Assembly: GCA_000092065.1 (NCBI GenBank)
Contig: CP000590.1
Origin: Ostreococcus lucimarinus
Lineage: Eukaryota
DNA length: 64,000 nt
Strand: one strand, 5' to 3'
The position numbers were made by a program, and so were the translations under genes. Within the stretch, counting starts at the first letter, position 1. Every line of letters starts with the position of its first letter. The notes under the pieces are model-generated. The model made no database searches. It was not told the origin of the DNA and was given only the letters and a program-made list of their open reading frames with translations. This document shows positions 3,507 to 54,193 of the stretch, one piece after another.

Positions 3507-4597
3507 ATGCGCGCGCGCGCCGCTCGAGCGCGCGTCGGCGTCGCGCGCGCGACGCCGCGCGATCGTCGCGCGCGACCGCGACCGCGCGCGGACGCCGAGG
3601 CGCGCTCGAACGGCGCGCGCGCGGCGAATGAACTTCCAACCGTCTTGCGAGAGGTTGACGACGCGGCGCGCGCGCTCGACGCGGCGCGCGCGGCGATCGC
3701 CGTCGCGATGCGCGCGCGCGGACGGAACGCCGTCGCGGAACGCAAGCGCGATTCGACGATCGCGACGGTGGCGGACGTCGCCGCGCAGGTGGCGTGCGCG
3801 AGGGCGCTGCGCGGCGGCGAGGGCGAAGATTTCGTGGGCGAGGAGACGACGCGAGCGCTGGACGGTGACGCCGACGTCGTGACGGCGATTTTGACGGCGT
3901 GTGGGGCGGGAGTGGACGAAACGGAGGCGAGGGAACGGCTGAGGGAGACGTCGGGGGGGATCGGGCGGTACTGGGTGTGCGATCCTCTGGACGGCACGAA
4001 GGCGTTCGCGGCGAGCGACGACGCGGATAAACAATACGTGCTCGGATTGGCGCTCATGAGCGACGTCGGGACGCCGGAGATCGCGGTGATGATAGCGCCG
4101 AAGTGGCCGGGCGGAGGATTGGAGGTGGTCGCCGCGCGCGGTCGCGGGTGTTTCGCTCGCTCGCGCGACGACGAGACGAGCGCGTTTCGGCGCGTTTCGT
4201 GCGCGCAGCCGAAAGCGTTGTCGGACGCGAACGTCGTCATTTCGGCGCACGAATCGTTCGAGTCTTTGCCGCTCGGCCGGGCGGGCGTGTCGCCGGCGCG
4301 GGTGCGCCGATTGTGTTGCGGGAGTCTGTGCAAATACGTCGACGTCGTCGCTGGCTCGTCGTCGATTTTTATTCAACACGCAAAGGAGGGCGGCGACGAC
4401 GCGTGCGTCAATTCTTGGGATCACGCCGCGGGTGTTTTATGCGCCGAAGAGGCTGGTTGTGTCGTGACGGATTTACACGGACGCTCGCTCGGGTTTCTCG
4501 GTCGCGACGGCGACAGACGGCGTTTCTCGCCGGGCGGCGGCGGCGTGATTTGTGCGGCGAAAAGCGTTCACGAGAACGTCGTGCGAGCATTTCGAGA

Positions 4598-4619
<22 letters not shown>
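3507..4619 (+). CDS. 3'(2'),5'-bisphosphate nucleotidase / inositol monophosphatase family (SAL1/HAL2-like)
   Basis: ATG at 3507, in frame with track ORF 2766..4619. Motifs TVADVAAQ, WVCDPLDGTKAF and the WDxAAG region match the Li-sensitive phosphatase family. Confidence 0.7.
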
Positions 4620-4642
<23 letters not shown>

Positions 4643-4677
4643 GTGGCTGTGTACGTAGTATCAATAGCTTAGAATGG

Positions 4678-6154
4678 CTAACACACGCTAAGATACGCCT
4701 GCGCACGTCTGAGCGACTGCGTGAGGTGCGGATGCTGGTTGATTTCATAGCGAATCGCCGCGCTCAGATTGTCGCGCTTTGACTCCAACCGCGAGATTAA
4801 GTGTGCGTACCGTTCACGCTCGTCATTCGATCGCTCGACGTTTTCATCCGTGCCTTCTCCGCCTTTACCAAGTTTTTCAAATCGTTGCGCCATCTTTTGC
4901 AAACTGCTCGTGCCGAGGAGCGCGCGTTCGTACTTTTCGTTTAAACGCGTGGTGGCGTCGACGCGAAGATAATCACGTCGATCGCTCAAGTCGGACATTA
5001 TCGCCGCGATTTTACCGTGCGCGTCTTGCGTTTCCAGATACTCTTTCTCCAGTGCGTCGAGCTTTGGTTTTAGGTCCGCCGTCGCTTTCTGCGCCTCCGC
5101 TAACCGTCTTCGCACGTCGCTCCGAGCGCGCTTCGCAGTCGCCACCATTTCAGCCTCTCGAGCTTCTTCGCCGTCGGCGTCGATTTTGGATTGAATCACA
5201 TCGCCTTTTGCGACGATTATCTCTCGACGCTTGACGCAAGACTCTACCTTCGCCGCGATGTTGCTTCGAGTCGATTCGAGTTTGTGCAAAACGACGGCGA
5301 GCTTGGCGTTTTCCTGCTTGGCGCTCGCCACCTCGCTGTTTCCTTTCGTCGGATCGAGCATGATTTGGGCGTGACGTTCAAACTCAATTCGTCTTTCGAG
5401 ATCTGCGATGGCTCGGTTGATGCGATCGGCGTCCAGATGCGCAGTTCGCACGGCTTCCTCGCGATTGGAAATTTCCACGCGCAACTTCAAATTCTCTCCG
5501 CTGAGCGCGTCGATCTCACCTGCGCGCGCGTTCTCGACTTCGAGCGATCGAATCGCATTTTCGCGCGCACTGGATTCTGTTTGCGCGATTTTCTCATCGA
5601 TTGCGCAAAGCTTGCGTCGTTGACGCTCGATTGTTTTGTTCATGGATTCGCATTCTTCGGCGTAACGACGCGAATTTCTCTCATGTCGATCCCGCTTCTT
5701 CGTCAGTACGTTGTTGTCTTGCACATGCCGGTCGAACTGTTCGATCGCATCTCGACATCGTTCCTCATGGGATACAATGACTTTTTGTGCTCTGAGCCAA
5801 ATCTCACGAAGCCGCCGACAGTTTTGTTCGTTCGACTTAATCTCGTTTCGTAAATGCGCAATTTGTGCCTCGAGCGGGCCAACGTGCTCGGGCGAGACAT
5901 CCCGCAACTTTTCGAGTGTCTTGTTAAGTGCGTCCATCTTTGAAGTGTTATTTTCGATTGCCTCGACGTTACGTGCGATTTCTCTTTCGCACGCGTCGAT
6001 GGCGACACGCCTCTCCGCAACGTTCTTCTCCACGTCAGCCAATCTTTCCCGAATTGTTGACTCTTCTCCCGAGCTGCGCAACATCTCAATCTTGGTTTTT
6101 GCAACTTTGTGCTTCACCACTGTTGATTCATTTCTCGCGACACGTGCGCGCTCT

Positions 6155-7597: not shown

Positions 7598-8788
7598 ATG
7601 TCCGCCGTCGCCGTCTCGGCGGTGGACGCGCTGGACGACGCGCGACACGCGTCGTCGCGCGCGAATGAGCATAAAGTGCACCAGCGTTGGCGCGAAGTCA
7701 TGCGCGCGCGGCGTCGACGCGCGACGCGCGAGGAGATCGAGAGCGCGGCGAAGGCGCACGATGATGCGTTGGATGATCGCGAGCGTGCGCTCGCGAACTT
7801 GGACGCGGCGATGGACGAGAGCGAACGCACGCACAGGGTCGAGGCGGAGGCGCAGGCGAGACGGTTGGAGGAGGCGTCGACGCGCGCGGACGCGGAGACG
7901 GCGACGATCGATGCGCGCGCGACTGGACGGTTGCGCGCGCTCCGCGAGACATTTGAAAGTGAGGACGCGCGCGCGGACGAACGGTGGCGAGAAGACGTTC
8001 AAGAGGCGTTGGAGCGCGCGGAGGCGGGACGCACAGCGTTTGAGCGAGAACAAGACGCGAGGCGCGCGAGTTTTGAAGACAAACGAGAGGAGATTCGGAA
8101 TCAGCACGGCGAGGACGTGTCGACGATGAAAATTATGTATGAAAACAAAATCAAAGAGCTCGAGAGCGAGCTCGCGCGAGTGACCGCGCCGAGCGTCACG
8201 AAGGGAGAATTAGGATGCGCCGACAATCACTGGGACGCCGAAGAAGAGCTCGACCACGAACGAGCGTACGAGCTCATTCGCGCGCGTGACGACGCGGACG
8301 CGAAACGCCTGGCGAACACAAAGCGCCAGATCCAGAAACTCCAATCCAAAGTCGATCATTGGCGCGAGAAGACGCACTCGCGAACTTCTGAATGGAACGC
8401 CTCGCACGCTCGCCGCGTCGCCGAGCGAGACCAACTCCTTCGTCGATACGACGACGTGAAATCCGGCGTCACCGCCATGCGCGACGCCCGCGCATCGGCG
8501 CTGCGCAAAATGTGCGTCTCAAGCGAGCACGCCATAAAAGAGCTCACGAGAACCTTGGAGCACGCTCGCCGCGTGCTCCGCGTGGAATCGCTCAACGCCG
8601 ACCTTCGTCGCCGGCACGGCGTCGACGTCGAAGCGTCCACACATTCGCCTCGCCGTTCCTCGCGCGACGCCGCGAGCGACGCCATCGCCGACTATCATTT
8701 CTCCGACGCACCTATGGATTACGCGCAGAGCGTCCTCGAGCGGTTTTACGCCCGCAGAACGGCTCAATCTTCCCCTCGCGCGCCGTAG
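7598..8788 (+). CDS. Coiled-coil protein (396 aa), divergently transcribed from the gene at 4678..7488
   Basis: ATG at 7598. Composition is coiled-coil throughout. Confidence 0.5.
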   Translation: MSAVAVSAVDALDDARHASSRANEHKVHQRWREVMRARRRRATREEIESAAKAHDDALDDRERALANLDAAMDESERTHRVEAEAQARRLEEASTRADAETATIDARATGRLRALRETFESEDARADERWREDVQEALERAEAGRTAFEREQDARRASFEDKREEIRNQHGEDVSTMKIMYENKIKELESELARVTAPSVTKGELGCADNHWDAEEELDHERAYELIRARDDADAKRLANTKRQIQKLQSKVDHWREKTHSRTSEWNASHARRVAERDQLLRRYDDVKSGVTAMRDARASALRKMCVSSEHAIKELTRTLEHARRVLRVESLNADLRRRHGVDVEASTHSPRRSSRDAASDAIADYHFSDAPMDYAQSVLERFYARRTAQSSPRAP

Positions 8789-8936
8789 CCAAATCCAAGC
8801 CATTTGTAGCGCGCACGACCGCCCAGCACATCAGCACACGCTCGCGCGCGCGACAACGCGAACGCACCCGCGCCGCCGCGACGCGACGCGAGGAAGCGAA
8901 ACGAAAGAACGCTTTTCGAGCGTCGGCGCGCGCGCC

Positions 8937-11285
8937 ATGTCGCGCGACGACGACGATGCGACGAAGAAATCGACCAAGACGAAGAAACCAAAGTTTGGTG
9001 GCGGCGGCGGCGCGCTGAATCAAAATGACGTCGTCACGGACGCCCGTTTCAGCGCCATGCACCGCGACCCGCGGTTCATGGCGATGCCGAAGAAGACAGG
9101 CGCGGTGCAGATCGACTCGAGGTTCGCGGGAGTGTTCGATGATCCGAATTTCGCGAGCGGAGGAGGCACGAGCGGGACGGACAAGCGCGGGAGACGCGCG
9201 GAGGATGAAAGAGGAGCGAAACTGGACGCACGCGCAAAGCAAAGGAAGGAGATGCGAGCGTATTACAAAATGGACGATGAAGATGATGATTCCGACGGCG
9301 ATGAGGGGTTGGAAGAGCGCATGGAGAAGTCGATGGATCGAATGCGCGGGGTCGGTTTGGAATCGTCAAGCGAGGAGGAGAGCGACGAAAGCGAGGACGA
9401 GGAAGGCGTCGATGAAGAGGATGAGGGGGTGCTGCCGACGATGCTCGTCGGAGAGGCGGATAAAGATATACCCACCATCGACGCAACGCGTCGGCTGGCG
9501 ATCGTGAATTGTGAATGGCAACATATTCGGGCGTGCGATTTGTACGCGGTGTTGCGATCCTTTGCGCCAAAGGGCGGGTCATTGGAGCGCGTGACGGTGT
9601 ACCCGAGCGATTTCGGGTTAGAGCGCATGGCGGTGGAGAATAAATACGGTCCTTTAAGCGCGTTTCAAAAAGATGAGTCGAAAAAGAAGTCAACGTTGAA
9701 CGCGGCGACGACGAAGAGAAAGGCGTCGGGGAACGAAAGCGACGACGCTGACGCGGCGGATAACGAACAAATGCGACAGTACGAGCGTGATAGATTGCGC
9801 TATTACTACGCTATCGCAGAATTCGATACAGTGAAGACCGCAATGGGGGTATATCACGAGTGCGATGGGATCGAGTACGAGCGATCGAGTTTTAAACTCG
9901 ATTTGCGTTACGTCCCGGACGACCAATCGTTTGAGGAACGCGAGGTTCGCGATACCGCCACGGATATTCCTCCCGATTACGAAGCTCCCGAGTTTCAAGT
10001 CAAGGCGCTGCAGCACTCGAACGTCAAGTTATCGTGGGACGATGATGACCCGACTCGGCGTAAAACGTTTCGACGTAAAATCACCGAGGACAATCTCAAG
10101 GATGAAGATTTCGCCGCCTATCTCGCGTCTGACTCCGACGACGAGGACGAATCCGAGCAATCCGAGGATGAAGAAAATGAAGCAGACGCCAAGGCAGCGA
10201 AAAAAGCGTACTTGGCTAAACTTCTCGGCGGGAGTGGTGACGCCGACGTTGATGCCGATGCCGGTGCGGAGAAGGATGACTTTTTTGTATCTGACGACGA
10301 CGACGACGACGGCGAGGACACCGCCAAGGCGTCCACGAAGGCGTTTAAAACGAAACGCGATAAACAGCGCTACGGCTCGAAAAGCAACGCAGGTGACATG
10401 GAAGTGACATTTCACGCCGGTCTCGAAGAGTTCGGTGCGCGCATTAAGAAGAAACAGAAAGACGGAAAGCTCGGCGCGCAGGAGACGGTTTACGAACGGC
10501 AAGAGCGCCTGCGCAAGGAAAAGCGCGAAGCGAAACGATTAGCGAATAAGGATAAAGGAGAAGTCAATGAAAAAGAGTCCGACGACGTTGCGGGTGGCGC
10601 CGACGGCGAGCCAGCGACGTTTGACGACCCGTTCTTCATGGACGATGGTGGTGACGTCGACTTTGACGCCGAGTACGATTCTGAAGACGGCGCCCCGAAG
10701 GCCAAGAAGAAGGCGAAAAGTAAGTTTACGGACGACGACGACGCGCCGAGCAAGACGAACTTGAAAAAGGCGAAGAAAGCTGCTAAGCGCGGTGAAGTAG
10801 ATGAACAAGCTCAAGCCGATTTGGAGCTGTTGATGATGGACGAGAAGGAAATTCTCGGCAAATCCGACGGCGTCTCCGCTCGTCGCGCTGCTATTAAGCC
10901 TGCCGACGGCGGAGAGCCGACCAAGAAGAAGTCGCGAAAAGAGCGTCTCGCCGAGAAACGCCGTCTCCGCGGCAAAGCCGCACGGCGTGCTGAGAGTGAT
11001 GACGACGACGACGGCGAAGTGAACAAGTTGGACACGGCGGACGATCGCTTTGCCGGATTGTACGAGTCGCATCACTTCAGTCTCGACCCCACGGATCCAC
11101 GTTACAAAGACGTGCAGAATAAGACGCTCATTATTAGTGAAAGAGACAAGCGGCGCCAGAAGAAAGCGGAAAAGAAATCTAGCAAGACTGTCAGCGCGCT
11201 TGAGTCGCAGGCGAAGGAAATCGGGTCGTCTGAACTGCAGAACATGATGGCGTCGCTCAAGAGGAAATCCAAAGTCAAGAAGTGA
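8937..11285 (+). CDS. ESF1 homolog (pre-rRNA processing, 18S rRNA synthesis factor)
   Basis: ATG at 8937. Conserved block RRLAIVNCEWQHIRACDLYAVLRSFAPKGGSLERVTVYPSDFG with acidic/KR-rich flanks is typical of ESF1/ABTAP. Confidence 0.7.
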   Translation: MSRDDDDATKKSTKTKKPKFGGGGGALNQNDVVTDARFSAMHRDPRFMAMPKKTGAVQIDSRFAGVFDDPNFASGGGTSGTDKRGRRAEDERGAKLDARAKQRKEMRAYYKMDDEDDDSDGDEGLEERMEKSMDRMRGVGLESSSEEESDESEDEEGVDEEDEGVLPTMLVGEADKDIPTIDATRRLAIVNCEWQHIRACDLYAVLRSFAPKGGSLERVTVYPSDFGLERMAVENKYGPLSAFQKDESKKKSTLNAATTKRKASGNESDDADAADNEQMRQYERDRLRYYYAIAEFDTVKTAMGVYHECDGIEYERSSFKLDLRYVPDDQSFEEREVRDTATDIPPDYEAPEFQVKALQHSNVKLSWDDDDPTRRKTFRRKITEDNLKDEDFAAYLASDSDDEDESEQSEDEENEADAKAAKKAYLAKLLGGSGDADVDADAGAEKDDFFVSDDDDDDGEDTAKASTKAFKTKRDKQRYGSKSNAGDMEVTFHAGLEEFGARIKKKQKDGKLGAQETVYERQERLRKEKREAKRLANKDKGEVNEKESDDVAGGADGEPATFDDPFFMDDGGDVDFDAEYDSEDGAPKAKKKAKSKFTDDDDAPSKTNLKKAKKAAKRGEVDEQAQADLELLMMDEKEILGKSDGVSARRAAIKPADGGEPTKKKSRKERLAEKRRLRGKAARRAESDDDDDGEVNKLDTADDRFAGLYESHHFSLDPTDPRYKDVQNKTLIISERDKRRQKKAEKKSSKTVSALESQAKEIGSSELQNMMASLKRKSKVKK

Positions 11286-11316
11286 TTGTAGTGTAAAACT
11301 AACCTAAAATCTACTG

Positions 11317-12708
11317 CTACGTCGCCACACTAGCGCCTACGACGTCCATGAGCGCGATATCAAATCCGCGCTTTAAACCCGCGAGCAAATCTTCCTTCGT
11401 TTCTAACCCCACGGACAGACGCAACAGACCACCCGGCACGTGCGGCTCCTTTTCGCCCGGCGCGCACTCGACCGAATACCTGTGTTCGATGAGCGACTCG
11501 AAACCGCCGAGCGACGTGGCGCACGTCCAATAGTCGCAACTAACGGCCATAGTTTTACAAAACTTGACGACTCGCGACAAGTTTGATCCAGTGTGTTCGG
11601 GATAAAGATGCGGAAGGAAGTCAAAGAATACGAGCGAAAGCATGCCGCCGTACACGCCGTTTGGACACATGCGATTTACGATGTCGTAATGCGCGTTCTT
11701 CGACTCCACCGTTGTATCGGTTTGAAGCCCCGGGTATAGAACGATAGCGCCGTGAGGAATTCGACTGCGCAAGTACTGTTCGAACTCGTGCGCGATCCAC
11801 ATTGCGCTTTCGCTTTGTCTGCGCACGCGCAGCTCTAGCGTACGCATGCCTCGCGAGAGCAAGTACGCGTCCATCGACCCCATCGTCGCCCCGCCGAGCT
11901 TACGCTCATGCAAGATCCGCTGCCATCGATCATCGCATTCGCGCGTCACCAAAGCTCCCGCGACGACGTCCCCGTGTCCGTTCAAATATTTGGTCGCAGA
12001 GTGCATCACGACGTCGACGCCGAACGACAACGGCTTGGTACAAATCGGCGTCAATACCGTCGAATCCACACACACGCACCCCGCATCGCACGCCCTCGCC
12101 ACGGCCACGACCTGTTCTAAATCCATCACGTCCCACGTGGGATTCGCCGGGGATTCCACCCACACCAACGCCGCTTTTCGCCCTCTCGCCGCCTCTTCCT
12201 CCAACGCGCGCTTCAACGACCGTCCCGCGTGATGCGCCGTCCCCTTCGCGTCCTCGTCTCGCCTCGCCAGCGTGTGTCCATCGACGTCACATATCACATA
12301 CGGCACATCGGGGTCGTATTCCACGACCTCCACGCCTCGCGCGGCGCACCACTCTCGAATTCGCGCGCGCACCGCGAAGTACCCGCGGCTCGGCGAGCAC
12401 GCGAACGAACTCGCGTCCGACGTCCCGCGCACCGCGCCCTCGAGCACGGCGTTCACGGCCGCCATGCCGGACGAGAACAAAGCGCAATCGCTCCCGCGCT
12501 CGAGATCGCGCAGCGTGCGCTCGCACGCGCGCACGGATGGATTATCCGGCCGAGCGTAGCACAGCGTTCGGTCGCGAAAACGCGGAAGTTCGTGCGCGTC
12601 GTCGCGCGCGTACGTCGTCGATGGGTATATGGGCTGGATGACCGAACGCGTGGGGTCGTCGGCGGCGTCGGCGGCGCCGCGGACGAGCAAGGTGCCGTGG
12701 TCGAGCAT
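11317..12708 (-). CDS. PLP-dependent Cys/Met-metabolism enzyme (cystathionine gamma-synthase / beta-lyase family)
   Basis: ATG at 12706-12708. The PLP-lysine motif HSATKYLNGH and the CGS/CBL fold are present. Confidence 0.75.
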   Translation of the reverse strand: MLDHGTLLVRGAADAADDPTRSVIQPIYPSTTYARDDAHELPRFRDRTLCYARPDNPSVRACERTLRDLERGSDCALFSSGMAAVNAVLEGAVRGTSDASSFACSPSRGYFAVRARIREWCAARGVEVVEYDPDVPYVICDVDGHTLARRDEDAKGTAHHAGRSLKRALEEEAARGRKAALVWVESPANPTWDVMDLEQVVAVARACDAGCVCVDSTVLTPICTKPLSFGVDVVMHSATKYLNGHGDVVAGALVTRECDDRWQRILHERKLGGATMGSMDAYLLSRGMRTLELRVRRQSESAMWIAHEFEQYLRSRIPHGAIVLYPGLQTDTTVESKNAHYDIVNRMCPNGVYGGMLSLVFFDFLPHLYPEHTGSNLSRVVKFCKTMAVSCDYWTCATSLGGFESLIEHRYSVECAPGEKEPHVPGGLLRLSVGLETKEDLLAGLKRGFDIALMDVVGASVAT

Positions 12709-16818: not shown

Positions 16819-17310
16819 CGCGTCCGAGATCGCGTCGATCCGCGTCGTCGTCGTCGTCGTCCTCGCGCGCGGTCGCCGTCGAATCGTCGCCGACGTCACG
16901 GCGACATCTTGTCGCGCGCGCGCGCGTCTGCGCGTCGTGAGCGCGCGCGCGTCGCACGTCGCGACGGCGGGCATGCTTTCCGCGTCGCGTCGCGCGTCGC
17001 GTCGTCCGTCGCTCGGCCGCGCGCGCGCGTGTGCGGCGCGCGCGCGCGCGCCGTATCCTCCGACGCGCGAAGATAAGACGTCGATTCGTATGCGTTTAAA
17101 CATCATTAAATGCGAAAGATCGCGCCGACGTCGATTGAATTCGCAGACGATAAATACTCGATTCCAAACCCTGGATGTAACACGGAACAGACACACGACT
17201 CGACGGCGCGACGGCGCGACGGCGCAGTGCGCGCCGCGGCGCGGCGAACGACGCGCGCGCGCGGCCGAGCGCGCGTCGCGCCGCGATCGTCGACGCCGCG
17301 ATCGCCGACG

Positions 17311-17778
17311 ATGATTCGATTCGCGCTGTTATTCAGCAAACAAGCGAAGATTCGCCTGAGCAAGTACTACGTCCTGACGAACCAAAAGGAGCGGAAGAGG
17401 ATCGAGCGCGACGTCACGTCGCGAATCATACCGCGCGCGAACAAGCTGTGCAACGTCGTCGAGTACCGGGACGTGAAGCTGGTGTACAGGAAGTACGCGA
17501 GCCTGTACTTTTGTCTGGCGGTGGACCGAGGCGCGAACGAGCTCGCGACGCTGGAGATGATTCAACACTACGTCGAGATCTTGGACAAGTACTTCGGGAA
17601 CGTGTGCGAATTGGATTTAGTGTTCAACTTTCACAAGGCGCACTACGTGTTGGACGAGGTGTTCATCGCGGGGCATCTGCAGGAGACGTCGAAGAAGTTG
17701 ATCGCGCGGTTGGTGGGCGAGCACGACGCGCTCGTGGAACGCGTCAAATTGGGCGGCCCCGCGGCCGAGGACGCGTGA
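17311..17778 (+). CDS. Adaptor-protein complex sigma subunit (clathrin adaptor small chain)
   Basis: ATG at 17311 (MIRFALLFSKQAKIRLSKYY...). The 155-aa length and motifs are typical of AP sigma chains. Confidence 0.8.
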   Translation: MIRFALLFSKQAKIRLSKYYVLTNQKERKRIERDVTSRIIPRANKLCNVVEYRDVKLVYRKYASLYFCLAVDRGANELATLEMIQHYVEILDKYFGNVCELDLVFNFHKAHYVLDEVFIAGHLQETSKKLIARLVGEHDALVERVKLGGPAAEDA

Positions 17779-18778: not shown

Positions 18779-20113
18779 CTACACAGAGAGCGTACCTTTG
18801 CTCGACGCCACGGAGCCCGCGCGTCGCGGATCAATCGCCGCGCACTGTCGCAAGCACTTACCGAAAGCCTTCGCCGCGGCTGTGGCAACTTCGGCTTCGT
18901 CCGCGCCGCGCGCGTGCTCGACCAAGTGCACCGTCATTTGCCCGTTGAACGTCAAACTCATGAACATGTGCTCGACCATCTCCACGCTGAGGTCGCCCAC
19001 TTTGTCGCTCTCGAGCTCGAGTCCGTACCCCAAGTACGGGCGATTGCTAAGATCCATGACGCACTCCACCGTGGCCTCACCCTCGGTGGACATCGCGCTC
19101 CCCATGCGATTACACCCTTTCTTAGTCCCCAGCGCCTTGTTCAGCGCTTGGCCGACGGCGATGGACACGTCTTCCGCCGTGTGGTGGTCGTCTATCCACA
19201 AGTCTCCCGTGGCGGCGATGTTCAGCGCCACCCCGGCTTCGCGTTGAATCGCGGTGAACAATCCATCGAGGGCGACGATACCGGTGCTGATCTTCGATCC
19301 CTCGACGTCATCGCGACTGGCGTCTAAATCCAGCTTCACGTCGATGGACGTCTCCTTCGTCGAGCGTTGAATCGCGCTTCGCCGCGTCTCCTCGCTCGCG
19401 GCGGCGCCCGCGTACACGTCGATCCCTTCCGCCGCGTCCATCGCCGCGCGAACCCCCCGCGCGAACGCCTTGAACGTCGATTCGACGATATGATGCGCGT
19501 TATCCCCGCGCTCTTTCACCAACCGCACGCTCACCCCCGCTTCCTCCGCTAACGCTCGCCAAAACGTCTCCGTGAGCGCCGTCGGATACGTCCCGATGCT
19601 CGCGCGTCCCGCCGTCCCCGGCTTCCCATACGGCGCCAGCGCGAACGTCTCCAGCCCTCGCTCGCCGTACAGCTCGATCCCACACGTCGCGTACGCCTCG
19701 TCCAACGGCGCCGCGAACCGCGCCTTCGCCCGCTCCCCGGCGCCTCTCCCGTCTCCCAGCGTCTCTCGCAGCGCCGCGCCCAGCGCCGCGCCCGCGCACC
19801 GAAACGCCTCCTCGTCGCTCACCCCTCCCGCGTCGCGCGCCTCCTCGCACGTCACCCCGCGTCGCGTCAGCACGCAGTGCACGCCCAACTGCGCGTGCGC
19901 GGTGAGCTGATCGATCATGTGATCCAGGAACGGCGCGCCCGTCGCGATCGTCCCGCGCGCGCCGTTCGCATCGATCACCGCGACGCCCTGGACGTCCCCG
20001 CACGCGCGCTCCGCGCGTCCGACCGCCCACGGCGACGTCGCGCGCGTTCGCGCGCGTCGTCTCCCGGCGTCGCGGCGTCGCGGCGCGCACGGCGCGAGGC
20101 GCAGCGTCGCCAT
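18779..20113 (-). CDS. Imidazoleglycerol-phosphate dehydratase (IGPD) with an internal tandem duplication (two IGPD folds) and a presequence
   Basis: ATG at 20111-20113. The N-terminal copy has FLDHM and NAHHIVESTFKAF. The C-terminal copy has TKET, IDDHHTAED, VEMVEH and SSKG. Confidence 0.75.
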   Translation of the reverse strand: MATLRLAPCAPRRRDAGRRRARTRATSPWAVGRAERACGDVQGVAVIDANGARGTIATGAPFLDHMIDQLTAHAQLGVHCVLTRRGVTCEEARDAGGVSDEEAFRCAGAALGAALRETLGDGRGAGERAKARFAAPLDEAYATCGIELYGERGLETFALAPYGKPGTAGRASIGTYPTALTETFWRALAEEAGVSVRLVKERGDNAHHIVESTFKAFARGVRAAMDAAEGIDVYAGAAASEETRRSAIQRSTKETSIDVKLDLDASRDDVEGSKISTGIVALDGLFTAIQREAGVALNIAATGDLWIDDHHTAEDVSIAVGQALNKALGTKKGCNRMGSAMSTEGEATVECVMDLSNRPYLGYGLELESDKVGDLSVEMVEHMFMSLTFNGQMTVHLVEHARGADEAEVATAAAKAFGKCLRQCAAIDPRRAGSVASSKGTLSV

Positions 20114-20858: not shown

Positions 20859-22676
20859 TCATTGCGGTCGACTGTCGATTTCTTTGTAGAGCGCGTTGAG
20901 CAGAGCCACTCCATAGCCAGAACCTAAACCGTCTTTAAAGTTACCAGGACCAGCCATGTCGAGGTGAATCCAAGCCGTGTCATCGCGAGCGACCCAGTCT
21001 GGGTGTAAGTGATTGGCGATGAATTGACCGGCGCAGCTCGATTGCGCGTTGGCGCGGTCGGCGACGGAGTTTTTCATGTCGGCGACTTTGGAACTGAACT
21101 CACTCTTGAACATTTCCGGAGCGTAGGGCAGGGCGTGCGCCAGATCTCCGGTGATTCTGCCCAATCGCACGATGGTGTGCTCCATGTCTTCGCTATCGGT
21201 CACAAGTCCGGCGTGTTTACGCCCGGTGGCGATCATTTGCGCTCCGGTGAGCGTGGCCATGTCGACGATGATGCGCGGCTTGCACGCGGCGTTCGCGGGA
21301 TCGGAGCAATACGCGACGCCGTCCGCGAGCACGAGGCGCCCTTCGGCGTCGGTGTTGTTGATTTCCACTGTCTTTCCGCTCTTGCCGACGAGAATGTCAT
21401 CCGGGCGAATCGCGCCCGAGCCAATTGCGTTTTCGGCGATGCACAGCACGAGGTCGAGTGGCGTCTTGAAATTCGATTCGGCGTCCTCGCGAGCGATGGA
21501 CTCAAACGCGCACAGCATACCCGCGGCACCGCCCATGTCCGTCTTCATACCGCACATGCCGTCTTTAGATTTCAGCGAAAGCCCACCGGTGTCGAACGTG
21601 ATACCCTTGCCCACGAACGCGATGGACGGCGCGTCCGGGTCGACGCAACCTTTCGGCGTAAATCGCAAGTGCACGAGCGCGGGATCACGACCGTCGCGAC
21701 TCGAAGCGCTTCCGACGCCCGCCAGACATCCGTAGCCCTCCTCGACGAGTTGCGCGTAACGTTTAATCTCGACAACCTTAACGCTCGCGCCGAGCTCGCC
21801 CGCGACGACCTTCGCCTCGTCCACAAACGCGTCCGGCGACAGCTCGTTTGGCGCCATGTCGACGAGCGCCTGGCATCTGCGCACCGCCTTTGGCAACGAC
21901 CGCGTCTCCGCCCCGTTCCAAATCTCCCCTCCGCACACGACGCCCACGTACACTTCCCCGTCCACAACCGCGTCCGCCGCTCGAAACTTATTCGTATACG
22001 GCGCACTAATCCTCGCCAACGCCGCCAACGCCCCGACGCGGTGCGCCTCCTCGTCCACCGCCGCGAGCACCACCGCTCTTCTCTTCTTCCGATCCCCTAT
22101 CGCCGCTTTCGCCGCCGCCGTCATCGCGTGCGCGGCGATCGGCGAATTATGTCTCGACATCTTCGATTTCTCCGGCATCACGCACACGACGAGCTCCAAC
22201 AGTCCCTCGTCGTCCTCGCTCGCCGTCTCGAGCACCGTGCTCCGCGTCGCGTTCGCGTCGAGGCTCTCGACCAATCGCTCGAACGTCCGCGCTGCGCGCT
22301 CGTTCGTCCCGAACGCGCGCCGCGCGAACGCGCCGTTCTCGAGCAGCGCATCTTTCGCGCCGACGACGACCCATTTCGCGTCGTTCGTGCGCCGCGCGGC
22401 GTCGCAATCGTCGTTCGTTTCGATCGTTTTCAGCGTCGACGCGCCGCGCCATCGGTCGTCGTGATGCGTCGTGGACATGCGCACGCGCGCGGAGGAGGCT
22501 CGACGCGAACGAACGCGGTGTGCGCGCGCGGTGTGCGCGCGGTGAGCGATTCGGGAGGGCGCGAAGGGCGCGCGGGCGCGCATGCGCCGTGGTGTGAGGC
22601 GGCGAGGGCGGCGCGCGCGGCGGCGTCGGCAACCGCCGCGAGCGCCGAGGAGAGCGAGTCGCGTGAGTTGAGTCAT
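20859..22676 (-). CDS. Leucyl aminopeptidase (M17 family)
   Basis: The NTDAEGRL signature and the M17 catalytic domain are present. The N-terminal ~80 aa are low-complexity and may be a presequence or lie upstream of the true start. Confidence 0.8.
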   Translation of the reverse strand: MTQLTRLALLGARGGCRRRRARRPRRLTPRRMRARAPFAPSRIAHRAHTARAHRVRSRRASSARVRMSTTHHDDRWRGASTLKTIETNDDCDAARRTNDAKWVVVGAKDALLENGAFARRAFGTNERAARTFERLVESLDANATRSTVLETASEDDEGLLELVVCVMPEKSKMSRHNSPIAAHAMTAAAKAAIGDRKKRRAVVLAAVDEEAHRVGALAALARISAPYTNKFRAADAVVDGEVYVGVVCGGEIWNGAETRSLPKAVRRCQALVDMAPNELSPDAFVDEAKVVAGELGASVKVVEIKRYAQLVEEGYGCLAGVGSASSRDGRDPALVHLRFTPKGCVDPDAPSIAFVGKGITFDTGGLSLKSKDGMCGMKTDMGGAAGMLCAFESIAREDAESNFKTPLDLVLCIAENAIGSGAIRPDDILVGKSGKTVEINNTDAEGRLVLADGVAYCSDPANAACKPRIIVDMATLTGAQMIATGRKHAGLVTDSEDMEHTIVRLGRITGDLAHALPYAPEMFKSEFSSKVADMKNSVADRANAQSSCAGQFIANHLHPDWVARDDTAWIHLDMAGPGNFKDGLGSGYGVALLNALYKEIDSRPQ

Positions 22677-34562: not shown

Positions 34563-48000
<13,438 letters not shown>

Positions 48001-48055
48001 GTGAGTCATTCACGCCGTTAGTGTCACCGAAGGCTCAAGGTAGAGCGCATGAATG

Positions 48056-48100
<45 letters not shown>

Positions 48101-48224
48101 GGGTTTAGTGAAAACTGACGGGGACAACCCCACCGCGTCGCTCGCCCGCGTCACACCGCCTCAACCGCGCCGTCACACCATGCCACTCGCGACGTGGCAT
48201 GTGTGTGATCTCTTTGGGTAGTGC

Positions 48225-48717
48225 GTGATCCCGCGTGTACGTCAAATGGCTGCTATCGTTACGTGGCTCGCATCGAGCGCACTCGCGTCGACTATGACGA
48301 GTGCGGCGAAAGCACTCACGCGGCGATCGTGGAAGCGCGCGGTCCGCTCGATGCTGGATGTGTACTGCGAATCGTATGCCTGGGACGAAGAGAGCGAGCA
48401 AAATGACCTGTCTGTCGTCGTCAAGGACGTCATATTGAAGAAATCAGAGCTGGAGGCGCTGCTCCTCACCTTCGGCTTGCACTTGGGGGAGGGCGGCTGC
48501 ACGTTTGGGAAAATTCGCTTCTGCATCTCTCTCGGTCTGAACATGGACATGGAGCTCTTCACAAAGCCGTGGCGTATTGAAGTGGACCATTTTCGACTGA
48601 ACATAGGCTGTGGTGCACGTGCTGAGTGCGATGTTCGCACAGAGGTGAACTCTCAATTTGATTGCTCGTCGGAAGGGTCTTCAAGACCAACGAAAATGGA
48701 AGAATGGCTTCCCCTTC

Positions 48718-48762
<45 letters not shown>

Positions 48763-49802
48763 TCACTCTTCACTCCATCAACCTTGCCGGGAGTTTGATA
48801 TTCAAGCTTGATACTGTCAAATATACCACAACCAATGAACATTGGTCGCCGATGGCTACCATAACGACTAGCGCTGACTATGCTGGAGGTATCTTACATA
48901 AGTTACTAACGTTTGAGGGCTTCGAAGCATATACAGATCGAGCCGTGTCGCCTTCGGATAGTGCTTCCGTAGACTGCTCTGGGCCTTGGGACCTTCCTTT
49001 TGAGGATGGCACACTTCTTCCTGTGCCTCAACTGACCCGCGTGAAGGTCTTGTTCAACGGATTACAAGGCAACATGAAGATTATTAAGAAGCTCAAAAGT
49101 AGCCTGACGGGACGCGTGGTGACCGATTTCTTTGGGGATGTATACACCTTTCAACTGTGTCTGGTTTCGGGTGGTGTACCAAAAGTGCGTATTCCACACA
49201 TTGCATTGCGCTTGGAATGGTCTGAACACATTGGGACGTACGTTCTCAACATGGAAGAAGCAGTTCAATTCTCGATTAGCCATCAGATCGACGCAGAAAT
49301 CCTAGCAGAAACCAATGCATGGCTAGTCCAAATTTTAGAAGCACATGCGGAGGTTGCGGCGTCCACTGAAACACAGCTTTCTTACGAGCGTGCTCGTCGC
49401 TTTCAGGAGCAAGCTTACGTTGGACGATTACATAAGCGACTCGATGAAGTGAAAGAAACCTTCCGAGAGAAATTCCTCGTTTGGCGCTCTGGGACGAAGA
49501 GTGCGATAGACGAGTTAAATATGGCTTTGTCGGAAGAGCAGCAACGACGTGAAGCGTTGGAAAAGGCCATGAAAGCGCAACAAGAAGTACTATCACAAAT
49601 GTACCAACAGCTGCAAGCACAGCTTGTTGATGCATCCCCGGTTGAACAAGTCAACGCTGTCTCACAAGCTATGCGCGCTATGAGTATGTCACTTGATCCG
49701 AAGTCAAACTCAACGCTGCCTCAGCGGGTGCCCTTTGAGGGAGGCTACCAGTTCGGAGATGTTTCGCGGAAAGCTCTTCGATGGTTCTCAAACATTGTCT
49801 AA
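48225..49802 (+). CDS. Hypothetical protein (about 520 aa) in the low-GC island, with a coiled-coil C-terminal half
   Basis: The first ATG is probably at 48246 (MAAIVTWLASS...). A telo-box TAGGGTTT lies at about 48099-48106 upstream. Confidence 0.4.
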
Positions 49803-49896
49803 ACCGCATCTCATGGGCAAGAGAAAGAGACGCTCTACAAATTCTTAGATTGAGTAACATTATCAAGAACGAATTCAAGAATAGTGAGTGGAGCAG

Positions 49897-49941
<45 letters not shown>

Positions 49942-50172
49942 CTCATACCGGTGCTCGTCAAGTCAAACCAGGAGCTGCACGAACGAATCGTTCATCTAGA
50001 GAGGGCACTCGAAATTCAACAGCAACACGACGCTCAAATCGCCGATTTAGAGGCCGCCGTTGCCTCGAGAGATCAGCAGATCGACGAACTCGTGGAGAGC
50101 TCAGTGACATCGTCTCGAGACTGGAGGCGGTGGAAACTTAAATTGTTACACTTTTCATTCGTCATGTCGCTT

Positions 50173-51154
50173 CTATGTGTCAGCCAAATCACCCATTTCT
50201 ATTTCTTTGTCAAGTGTTTCATCGGCAAACACTTGGTACTTGAACGGCTTTCGTGACCAAAACTTGACGTACAAACAGAGCGATACACCGCCAATGACAC
50301 ACGCCGTGAACAGCAAAATGAACACTGTGGCGACAAACTTCCATGGATTATGAGGAGTATCAGGCGCAAACTTTTCACGGAGCTTTTCGCATTGCACGGT
50401 CGCCATACCCACACGGGAATTCTCGAGGTCATACTCGACAAACGTGTTTCTCAGCGTTTGCTGACCCAGTATGATCTGTTCACCATTTGCTAGTGCAGCA
50501 TCGCTCGCCGACATTATCCCTGCACAAAACGCATGCAAGTTGACAGTGTCTGCAAACAAGTAATTCTCGGGACGTAGGACCAGAGTGACGTCCGGATCGT
50601 ACGTGATTGTAAGACTTGGGAACCATCGCGTGAGTGTGTACTGAGTCAGTGACGATTGCCTTTGGTTCTCGTAAAAGCAATGTGTTCCTCTCACAACCAC
50701 ACTTAGGCCGGCACTGCGCGCCGTTTCATTGAGATGTGTCATGAAATCGTGGTGCATTGCGCTCGGTAACACTGTCAGCGTCGTTCCACTGTCGAGAACT
50801 GTGTACACGTTCGATGAGCTAGCGATCGTTTTGTCACCAAGTTTCCAAGACATCGTGCGAACGGCTAAGTCGTCTTCCCCGAGCATGCGAGTCCACGCAA
50901 GCTCCGGGACGCGCCTTCCAAAGTTGTAACGACCCAGTGTAAGCATCGCGGTCGATGTTTCCATACCTTCGCTACAGAATCCGAATACGTGCGCGTCGAT
51001 GACACCCGCCTTTGCCAACTGTGTGTGAAATGCAGTGTTGCCCCGACTGAACCCAGCCATACCATCTTGGCGGAGATTGCTCCCATCGGGGTAATACATG
51101 CCACCGCAGCCGAAAGTGATCTTCGCAGGAGCCAACTCATCACCCAGTGTAAAC

Positions 51155-51199
<45 letters not shown>

Positions 51200-51669
51200 C
51201 CGATTCCAAACAAACATGTGTTTGTGTACGATATGTTTGTATCACACAGAAGGACATTCGGTTGCGCATTGCAGTACGCCGCATCCTCAGTGCTTGTTGT
51301 ACAGTTGAGTTTTCGAAATGTCTTAGACATGTCGTAATCGTAGTATGGATGTTCGTGAATCCCACACACTTCAAGTGGACATCCCTTACACGGGAAGTAA
51401 GTCAGCGGACTCCCGGTGTCCACTTCAAGGTCAAACTTTTGCTTGCCCGCAAGCTCCACCGTCAAGAAGAACTCGTGGCCCGATGAGTACAAACCTATGA
51501 GGTCCGCACCGTACGAGTGGAGCGGGATCGCGTCCGCTTTGGACAACAGACGCCGCCCCGCCCCCGCGGTAGCCCTTGGTTTTCTCTTAACGGCGATCGC
51601 GAACGAACCTTTTCCGGACGCGTGCGCGCCCAAAGCGACGAGTGCTACGTACACGACGAGAACAATCAT
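50173..51669 (-). CDS. Pepsin-like (A1 family) aspartic protease with a signal peptide and a C-terminal transmembrane anchor
   Basis: Catalytic motifs DTGS (LEVDTGSPLTYF) and DSGTT (VLDSGTTLTVLPS) are present. Signal peptide MIVLVVYVALVALGAHASG is at the ATG near 51667-51669, and a C-terminal hydrophobic helix is followed by a basic stop-transfer. Confidence 0.75.
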
Positions 51670-51878
51670 CGTCTCCCTCCACGCGCGCTGTGTTTGCCGC
51701 TCATTGTTGGGTGCACGGTCGTGCACACGCGCCGAACGGCGGGGACGCATGCGTCGCGGACTGCCGCCGTCTCCGCCGGAAAAACGGAGATTGCCAAACC
51801 CTGCAGAAATCTATAACGGGTCCAAGCCTGCTTGAGAATAATAACCATGATGGCATAGCCGAATACATTTTTACATCT

Positions 51879-54193
<2,315 letters not shown>

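Follow-up and report, generated by a model that had tools for sequence, protein, structure and literature searches.

The tandem IGPD gene and its two domains

A window of 64,000 nucleotides of Ostreococcus lucimarinus DNA (contig CP000590.1 of assembly GCA_000092065.1) contains, on its minus strand at positions 18,779 to 20,113, a gene for an imidazoleglycerol-phosphate dehydratase (IGPD) made of two IGPD domains in one chain. The two domains have divided the active-site residues of the enzyme exactly between them, the same division is conserved in all relatives examined, and each of the two domain types has a single origin. The open reading frame (ORF) runs from 20386 to 18779, and its first ATG, at 20113, gives 444 codons and a stop. 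Neither a stop codon nor a change of frame separates the N-terminal (N) half from the C-terminal (C) half. The main features are given below, with roles A, A' and C denoting the three subunits that share each active site in canonical IGPD.

18779..20113, minus strand: complete coding sequence of the tandem IGPD, 444 codons and stop (stop codon 18779-18781), from the ORF list and its translation
19427..20020, minus strand: N-type IGPD domain, residues 32-229, holding the role-A half of the active site and lacking the C-terminal loop (C-loop); PF00475 at 88 bits and alignment to Arabidopsis thaliana IGPD2 (AtIGPD2)
18782..19381, minus strand: C-type IGPD domain, residues 245-444, holding the role-A' and role-C parts including the C-loop; PF00475 at 152 bits and AtIGPD2 at E 1e-44

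The Pfam family PF00475 matches the protein twice, and it was the only family found in the Pfam scan. When the halves were scored separately against the gathering cut-off of 27 bits, residues 1-246 alone reached 88.2 bits (E 7e-25, covering profile positions 1-142 of 144) and residues 247-444 alone reached 152.4 bits (E 1e-44). This agrees with an earlier interpretation made from the letters of the window alone (the sequence-only reading), which had proposed two IGPD folds in a single 444-residue chain. Both halves are thus IGPD-like by separate alignment, with metal ligands that are complementary rather than the same in the two. Each half was also aligned residue by residue to AtIGPD2 (4QNK/4MU0; 4MU1) with HMMER, and Arabidopsis numbering is used for active-site positions throughout. 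The N half aligns to AtIGPD2 residues ~28-187, and the C half aligns over residues 11-201 (E 1e-44) with 43% identity over core columns. None of the 13 cut-offs of the NCBIfam HisB equivalog models is attained by either half, the nearest scores being 164.7 (cut-off 231) and 146 (cut-off 189). With the full chain two of these models are passed, solely because the scores of both halves add up.

An AlphaFold2 model of the tandem protein, built from a 70-sequence alignment, has a mean predicted local distance difference test score (pLDDT) of 90.5 and a predicted template modelling score (pTM) of 0.90. The strand-strand-helix-strand-helix pattern occurs twice in each half of the model, and the order of strands and helices assigned by DSSP to the N domain matches that of the C domain. 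A Foldseek search of the PDB gave template modelling (TM) scores of 0.93-0.95 to 4MU4, 5EKW and 2F1D, normalized by target length, with one domain aligned to single chains; as the alignment covers one domain, it is silent on how N and C pack together. As modelled, the IGPD fold, a four-helix bundle between two four-stranded sheets, is present in the tandem protein. The N and C domains of one chain are also predicted to pack in a defined way, because of the high pLDDT and pTM.

The active-site residues are divided between the domains

Canonical IGPD consists of 24 identical subunits with 24 active sites, each site being built from three subunits. In the published assignment, Mn1 is held by H74(A'), H47(A), H169(A) and E173(A), whereas Mn2 is held by H73(A'), E77(A'), H145(A') and H170(A); the phosphate pocket combines K177(A) and H55(A) with R99, R121, S199 and K201 of subunit C (PMC6029752, the Acanthamoeba IGPD paper, in Arabidopsis numbering). 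D108 of chain A holds the Mn2-bound water (PMC6029752, PMC4509728). The papers on the Medicago and Arabidopsis enzymes agree on the metals and on a third subunit that contributes R99 and R121 (PMC10978614, PMC4509728). The E21Q mutant is inactive, and the C-loop closes over the substrate, its deletion abolishing the activity of Pyrococcus furiosus IGPD (PMC4509728). The corresponding motifs of the tandem protein, all on the minus strand and all placed by alignment, are as follows (At, AtIGPD2).

19916..19930, minus strand: FLDHM, residues 62-66; H65 = At H47 (Mn1 ligand, role A)
19802..19819, minus strand: SDEEAF, degenerate first HHxxE motif of the N domain (H73E, H74E, E77R), from alignment to 4MU1/4MU0
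19694..19708, minus strand: PLDEA; D138/E139 = At D108/E109
19562..19576, minus strand: LTETF of the N domain, in which the H145 ligand is replaced by Thr (LVEH to LTET)
19481..19501, minus strand: NAHHIVE, residues 205-211, intact second HHxxE motif; H207/H208/E211 = At H169/H170/E173
19349..19360, minus strand: TKET, residues 252-255; E254 = At E21, the proposed acid-base catalyst
19259..19273, minus strand: ALDGL, degenerate FLDHM of the C domain (H47G, with Q51 and H55 also lost)
19169..19195, minus strand: IDDHHTAED, residues 307-315, intact first HHxxE motif; H310/H311/E314 = At H73/H74/E77
19037..19114, minus strand: CNRMG (19100-19114) to SNRP (19037-19048); R336/R358 = At R99/R121, phosphate-binding arginines
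18968..18985, minus strand: VEMVEH, residues 377-382; H382 = At H145 (Mn2 ligand, role A')
18887..18907, minus strand: GADEAEV, residues 403-409, degenerate second HHxxE motif of the C domain, without His
18794..18805, minus strand: SSKG, residues 437-440, C-terminal loop (RRAG..SSKG); S437/K439 = At S199/K201

The alignment to AtIGPD2 bears out the pattern of gains and losses described in the sequence-only reading. The N copy keeps FLDHM and the second HHxxE motif (NAHHIVE) and has lost TKET, IDDHH, the VEH histidine (LTETF) and the C-terminal RRGG..SSKG loop. The C copy keeps TKET, IDDHHTAED, VEMVEH and SSKG and has lost FLDHM (ALDGL) and SHH..E (GADEAEV). In the N half, VSDEEAFRC stands in place of IDDHHTNED, and these positions vary across relatives. 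Two substrate-phosphate binders, Q69 (At Q51) and residue H73 of the chain (At H55), lie downstream of FLDHM, and K215 (At K177) follows NAHHIVE.

Each of the eight Mn ligands is present in exactly one copy, as had been claimed, with H47, H169, H170 and E173 in the N domain and H73, H74, E77 and H145 in the C domain. The full ligand set is therefore found per polypeptide and not per domain. The catalytic and phosphate-binding residues are likewise complete per chain, with Q51, H55 and K177 in the N domain and E21, R99, R121, S199 and K201 in the C domain. Two (D/N)xHHxxE motifs per domain, as in canonical IGPD, are not found; one is intact in each (NAHHIVE in N, DDHHTAE in C), and the whole chain holds one of each kind. 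The published chain labels coincide exactly with this split. The N domain holds exactly the role-A set (H47, Q51, H55, D108, H169, H170, E173 and K177), and the C domain holds the role-A' set (H73, H74, E77 and H145) and the role-C set (R99, R121, S199 and K201), together with E21.

The division is conserved across algal lineages

A search of 5.8 billion proteins returned 425 matches at E≤1e-10, and the best 120 of these all have two IGPD domains. When 1.84 billion representatives were scanned in full with HMMER, using only the N domain as query, there were 1203 matches at E≤0.001 and 251 at E≤1e-10; N-type matches came out on top and canonical single-domain IGPDs ranked lower. Conservation was assessed in 119 relatives aligned to Arabidopsis numbering and then in 199 proteins with two complete domains, using an alignment based on a hidden Markov model. 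In 199/199 two-domain relatives an N-type domain is followed by a C-type domain, with the same split of the eight ligands, and none has two canonical domains, the reversed order or a mixture. The occurrence of this fused architecture in other algae, raised in the sequence-only reading, is thus borne out in Bathycoccus, diatoms and dinoflagellates.

Among the 119 relatives, H47, Q51, H55, D108, E109, H169, H170, E173 and K177 show little or no variation in the N domain and are lost in the C domain. The reverse is seen for R17, T19, K20, E21, T22, D71, H73, H74 and E77, and likewise for R99, R121, H145, R193 and S199-G202. Role-A positions are conserved at 99-100% in N and 0-38% in C (in the 119 and then the 199 relatives), and role-A' and role-C positions together with E21 are conserved at 96-100% in C and 0-22% in N, with the exception of E77 (63% in N). 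In the larger set, H47, Q51, H55 and the H169/H170/E173 triad of NAHHIVE are conserved in 100% of the 199 N domains. The D108/E109 position is conserved in 99% of N domains and lost in C domains, and H145 is kept in 1% of N domains. On the other side, the ligands of the IDDHH motif (H73/H74/E77) are conserved in 100% of the 199 C domains, R99 and R121 in 100% (4-18% of N domains), and the SSKG of the C-loop in 99%, this last motif being absent from N domains. E21 is found in 98% of C domains (all of those aligning there) and has no conserved acidic counterpart in N domains. Judging from this conservation the N/C split is not due to chance. Nor is it circular, because about 15 further active-site positions outside the set used for classification follow it.

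At the positions of the dead site, relic His and Glu residues are scattered irregularly in different lineages, which fits neutral decay. Position 170 of the C domain, a former Mn2 ligand, is Asp or Glu in 83-92% of relatives, and neighboring dead-site positions vary freely. The protein of the window does not clearly follow this rule, and the local alignment there is ambiguous (residues 403-409, nucleotides 18887-18907). The acidic residue may have kept some role at this position, for example as a contact in assembly or in binding a ligand. N positions 73/74 and C positions 169/170 often carry opposite charges, but the idea that salt bridges have taken over from the metal bridges at the dead interface was rejected, as the pattern fails in the window protein (E, E against E, A).

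Named members of the family include Bathycoccus prasinos XP_007510345.1 (409 residues, annotated as IGPD in RefSeq), Thalassiosira oceanica, T. antarctica, Ditylum, Extubocellulus, Mediolabrus, Symbiodinium natans ('hisB'), Effrenium voratum and Yihiella. Complete transcript-derived ORFs of relatives (MMETSP, EukProt) carry both domains, and because several relatives are known from such ORFs the fusion is transcribed as one unit. Every diatom IGPD retrieved is of the tandem form. A single IGPD gene is listed for T. pseudonana in a review of diatom amino-acid pathways (PMC3901274).

Some proteins of 625-1206 residues carry the N-type plus C-type unit at the end of the chain: P0234 (1206), P0248 (1023), P0233 (810), P0230 (672), P0281 and P0249. 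Multi-enzyme fusions of the histidine pathway were rejected as an explanation for these, since Pfam shows IGPD alone, along with nucleoporin FG repeats in one of them; they are most likely merged gene models. Proteins of 200-350 residues with an N-type domain only were also found (P0218, P0220, P0224, P0225, P0247 and P0275). These could be truncated gene calls or stand-alone N subunits from unfused lineages.

Origin and selection

A neighbor-joining tree was constructed from 38 dereplicated tandem proteins and 34 canonical IGPDs (163 shared columns, 200 bootstraps). The N domains form one clan and the C domains form one clan, each in 200/200 bootstraps, and both are nearest to plant-type IGPD. 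The two domain types are ~20-22% identical to each other, and each is ~33-34% identical to canonical IGPDs. The tree fits one duplication and fusion of an IGPD of plant or cyanobacterial type; the two copies would afterwards have decayed in complementary ways, and the fused gene would have spread among lineages of algae.

Identity to the nearest orthologues is 64-74% in the N half and 86-90% in the C half. The ratio of nonsynonymous to synonymous substitution rates (dN/dS), calculated by the Nei-Gojobori method for comparisons with two orthologous loci, lies at 0.25-0.30 in the N half and at 0.07 in the C half, and between those two more closely related orthologues it is 0.06 in both halves. 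Ratios this low indicate purifying selection on the N and C halves alike. By the same comparisons the N half is real coding sequence, because it is conserved in orthologues and has a low dN/dS.

Gene model, flanking features and neighborhood

The public gene model covers the C domain only. RefSeq entry XP_001420174.1 (UniProt A4S3Y5, O. lucimarinus CCE9901, 220 residues, 'predicted protein'; P0124 in our set) is 100% identical to residues 225-444 and was found in the 90% cluster of the 444-residue protein. It starts at Met225 (19439-19441), slightly 5' of the linker between the domains, and spans 18782-19441, so that 224 upstream codons with a whole conserved IGPD domain are left out. The O. 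lucimarinus reference gene model needs to be extended beyond the C domain. Two further features of the coding sequence lie outside the domains.

20021..20113, minus strand: N-terminal presequence, residues 1-31, rich in Arg, Ala, Ser and Thr, marked by low pLDDT, low identity and high dN/dS
19382..19426, minus strand: inter-domain linker, residues 230-244, coil in the AlphaFold2 model (pLDDT ~82), with 53-60% identity to the nearest orthologues

The presequence is probably a plastid transit peptide. In the model its pLDDT is 44-51 over residues 1-20 (below 50 for residues 1-7), its identity to the nearest orthologues is 21-30% and its dN/dS is ~0.7-1.0.

An identical 444-residue protein is called on four metagenome contigs with the same neighbors, its gene lying between that of an M17 aminopeptidase and those of an AP-complex sigma subunit and a cytochrome-b5 desaturase. 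In the window the gene is flanked by an M17 leucyl aminopeptidase (20859-22676, minus strand) and an AP-complex sigma subunit (Clat_adaptor_s; 17110-17778, plus strand). The locus is syntenic, because the flanking genes recur beside the orthologue in related Ostreococcus contigs.

Elsewhere in the window, positions 46000-52000 have a G+C content of 0.51-0.53, compared with 0.60-0.71 in most of the window. Several long ORFs lie in this stretch, one of which (50173-51750, minus strand) encodes a eukaryotic aspartyl-protease or TAXi-like protein; the ORFs at 46424-47596 (minus strand) and 48225-49802 (plus strand) gave no Pfam match. AT skew is strong in three places, at -0.25 at 4-6 kb (4001-6000) and +0.22 to +0.26 at 8-12 kb (8001-12000) and 38-40 kb (38001-40000).

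Interpretation and alternative explanations

The best explanation of these observations, to which we assign a probability of about 0.8, is that the gene encodes a plastid-targeted, catalytically active IGPD whose functional unit would be an obligate pseudo-heteromer of two fused, diverged domains. We infer from the conserved residues that the tandem protein is active and is the cell's IGPD. Tandem duplication and fusion of a canonical gene would have given two classes of active site, one with N as A and C as A' and C, the other with C as A and N as A' and C. The second class would then have been wholly abandoned. A single inactivating hit in that class would be enough to start its neutral decay: because one change already inactivates the class, all residues serving only that class would become neutral. 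Those residues are the A face of the C domain, the A' face of the N domain, and the arginines and C-loop of the N domain, and it is exactly these that have decayed. The first class is left with a full site. What would remain is an N domain that is a pure donor of role A and a C domain that is a pure donor of roles A' and C, with the catalytic E21. It is more fitting to see in the pattern one site class lost in its entirety than eight independent complementary losses.

The subfunctionalized, complementary fusion suggested in the sequence-only reading is upheld by the conservation across the family and by the chain to which each ligand is assigned in publications. Its further suggestion of one complete site per chain holds as a stoichiometry. 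An individual site, however, is most likely still assembled from more than one chain, because the residues given by the third subunit (R99, R121, S199 and K201) survive only in the C domain. For the particle as a whole, if the cage is retained, 12 chains are inferred to form a pseudo-octahedral 24-domain particle of tetrahedral (23) symmetry, in which 12 sites would be live and 12 dead. All trimers would be homotypic, N3 and C3 taking alternate vertices of a cube, because T is the only subgroup of order 12 of the octahedral group, and one live and one dead site would lie beside every former two-fold axis.

Several points weigh against this interpretation. The tetrahedral 12-mer comes from a symmetry argument only, and it needs roles A' and C to be filled from the same canonical trimer. 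Catalytic activity is deduced from residue conservation, and the intrachain N:C contact is presumed to be the A:A' interface, where the eight ligands would converge. Per active site the tandem form would cost twice as much polypeptide as canonical IGPD, with no evident selective benefit, and O. lucimarinus may possess a canonical single-domain paralogue. Finally, the legend of Fig. 2B of PMC4509728 labels the catalytic residue 'Glu21A', whereas in the tandem family E21 survives only in the domain acting as A' and C. Either this label is loose or the tandem family manages without an E21 on the A side. The pseudo-two-fold axis of the site matches D108(A) to E77(A') at Mn2, and on that basis the expected partner of E173(A) at Mn1 is E21, coming from the A' side.

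Among the other explanations weighed, the one with most in its favor keeps the enzyme active and changes its assembly. The site would be formed by an intrachain N:C pair or within a small oligomer (a dimer or hexamer of chains), the 24-domain cage would be given up, and fusion would free activity from Mn-driven assembly of the 24-mer. The pTM of 0.90 points to a fixed packing of N and C within the modelled chain, fusion secures both a 1:1 stoichiometry and proximity, and the activity of canonical IGPD does rely on the Mn-induced assembly of trimers into 24-mers (PMC7284861, PMC10978614). However, the role-C residues (R99, R121 and the C-loop) are invariant in the C domain, and since they come from a third subunit in known structures, at least two C domains per site would still be expected; many surface and interface motifs common to canonical IGPD also persist in both halves. 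This explanation is considered unlikely, although it deserves to be kept in mind. More improbable still is a pseudoenzyme or regulator that does not dehydrate imidazoleglycerol phosphate, with a canonical IGPD encoded elsewhere doing the chemistry while the tandem protein binds imidazoleglycerol phosphate or Mn or acts as a scaffold for enzymes of the pathway. Each domain taken alone is crippled, with 4/8 ligands gone, and neither attains an NCBIfam HisB equivalog cut-off, and the possible canonical paralogue would give such a protein room to exist. A pseudoenzyme would nevertheless have no reason to keep a complementary set (eight ligands, E21, D108, the phosphate binders and the C-loop) invariant in ~200 sequences that span green algae, diatoms and dinoflagellates. 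The low dN/dS of both halves and the one IGPD gene reported for T. pseudonana (PMC3901274) speak against it as well.

We give hardly any credence to an annotation artefact, in which only the C-terminal 220 residues would be a gene and the upstream stretch would be a separate gene, a pseudogene or a 5' untranslated region. Such a view is encouraged by the public RefSeq/UniProt model (A4S3Y5), with its 220 residues corresponding to 225-444. The reading frame, however, stays open without a break between 20113 and 18782, the identity of the N half to its orthologues is 64-74% with a dN/dS of 0.06-0.30, and both domains lie in a single ORF in all relatives, among them those known from complete transcripts and the Bathycoccus RefSeq protein. 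In addition, the C half alone could not fully bind either Mn, because H47, H169, H170 and E173 are missing from it.

An active pseudo-heteromer of fused domains thus remains the preferred explanation, and a more specific version of it can be put forward tentatively, as a picture that we consider possible rather than probable. The tandem IGPD of Mamiellophyceae, diatoms and dinoflagellates would be a 12-chain tetrahedral cage that mimics the octahedral 24-mer, its fossil sites would possibly serve as metal-free assembly sites or as sites for a regulatory ligand, and E21 would act in trans from the A'/C side. If this is true, metal-free contacts at the fossil sites would free assembly from the supply of Mn, and the family would amount to a natural mutagenesis experiment on E21 acting in trans.

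Significance

IGPD is the textbook example of a homo-24-mer and a validated target of herbicides and antimicrobials. An IGPD found throughout a lineage, with two domains that have diverged and need each other and with only half the sites, would be the first to resemble a heteromer. The family offers an independent evolutionary read-out of which residues cooperate between subunits, and it bears on the dispute over the chain that supplies E21. It would also provide a clean case of a symmetric enzyme with shared sites becoming irreversibly complex after duplication, as one site class is lost and its residues decay. The algae concerned, namely Ostreococcus, Bathycoccus, diatoms and dinoflagellates, are among the main primary producers of the sea. 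The 'symmetric' inhibitors that have been proposed to bridge two neighboring IGPD sites (PMC10978614) would face one live and one dead site in these organisms. As a derived architecture common to green picoalgae and red-plastid lineages, the tandem form is a useful marker of gene transfer between them.

The architecture is apparently previously undescribed. No description of a tandem or heteromer-like IGPD was found in the literature on IGPD, HISN5 and histidine biosynthesis in prasinophytes and diatoms, in which subscription journals were thinly covered. A 2024 sequence-similarity-network study of 12,710 IGPDs makes no mention of it, nor does a phylogenetic survey that used IGPD as a reference tree.

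Comparison with known systems

The canonical homo-24-meric IGPD (HisB/HIS3/HISN5; 2F1D, 4MU4, 6FWH, 7OJ5) shares its Pfam family and its fold with both halves of the tandem protein, and its full set of Mn-ligand, catalytic and phosphate-binding residues is that of the whole tandem chain. Its subunits are identical, each acting as A, A' and C in three sites, whereas in the tandem form these roles are split between unlike, fused domains. Half of the potential sites of the tandem form are dead, and its N domain is without a C-loop.

The process of duplication and fusion is one that IGPD has undergone before, one level lower. The ancient half-domain duplication known as 'gene elongation' (Sinha 2004; Del Duca 2020, PMC7284861), which predates the last universal common ancestor, gave the two halves of a single IGPD domain, and HHxxE is the hallmark of each repeat. 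The motif is present in both half-domains of 535/535 aligned IGPDs (Del Duca et al., PMC7284861), and reviews regard this feature as universal. In contrast to the proteins of that set, each domain of the tandem protein has lost one of its two HHxxE motifs.

Bacterial bifunctional HisB (HisNB) is also a fusion that involves IGPD and shares the 'HisB' name, but it joins two different enzymes and not two copies of the same one. Against the model for bifunctional HisB (NF003937) the tandem protein scores 249 bits, from the IGPD part only, compared with a cut-off of 443, and no histidinol-phosphatase domain of the HAD type was found by Pfam. By these profile comparisons the tandem IGPD is not a bacterial bifunctional HisNB.

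Paralogue heteromers with reciprocal loss are known from trypanosome deoxyhypusine synthase, from AdoMetDC-prozyme pairs and from the Vma3/Vma11/Vma16 ring of the fungal V-ATPase. As in the tandem IGPD, the subunit of a homo-oligomer in which neighboring subunits share active sites or interfaces was duplicated in these systems, reciprocal loss followed and the copies became mutually dependent. Those heteromers consist of separate polypeptides, whereas the tandem IGPD is a covalent fusion derived from a parent cage of 432 symmetry, in which a class of 12 sites has apparently been given up.

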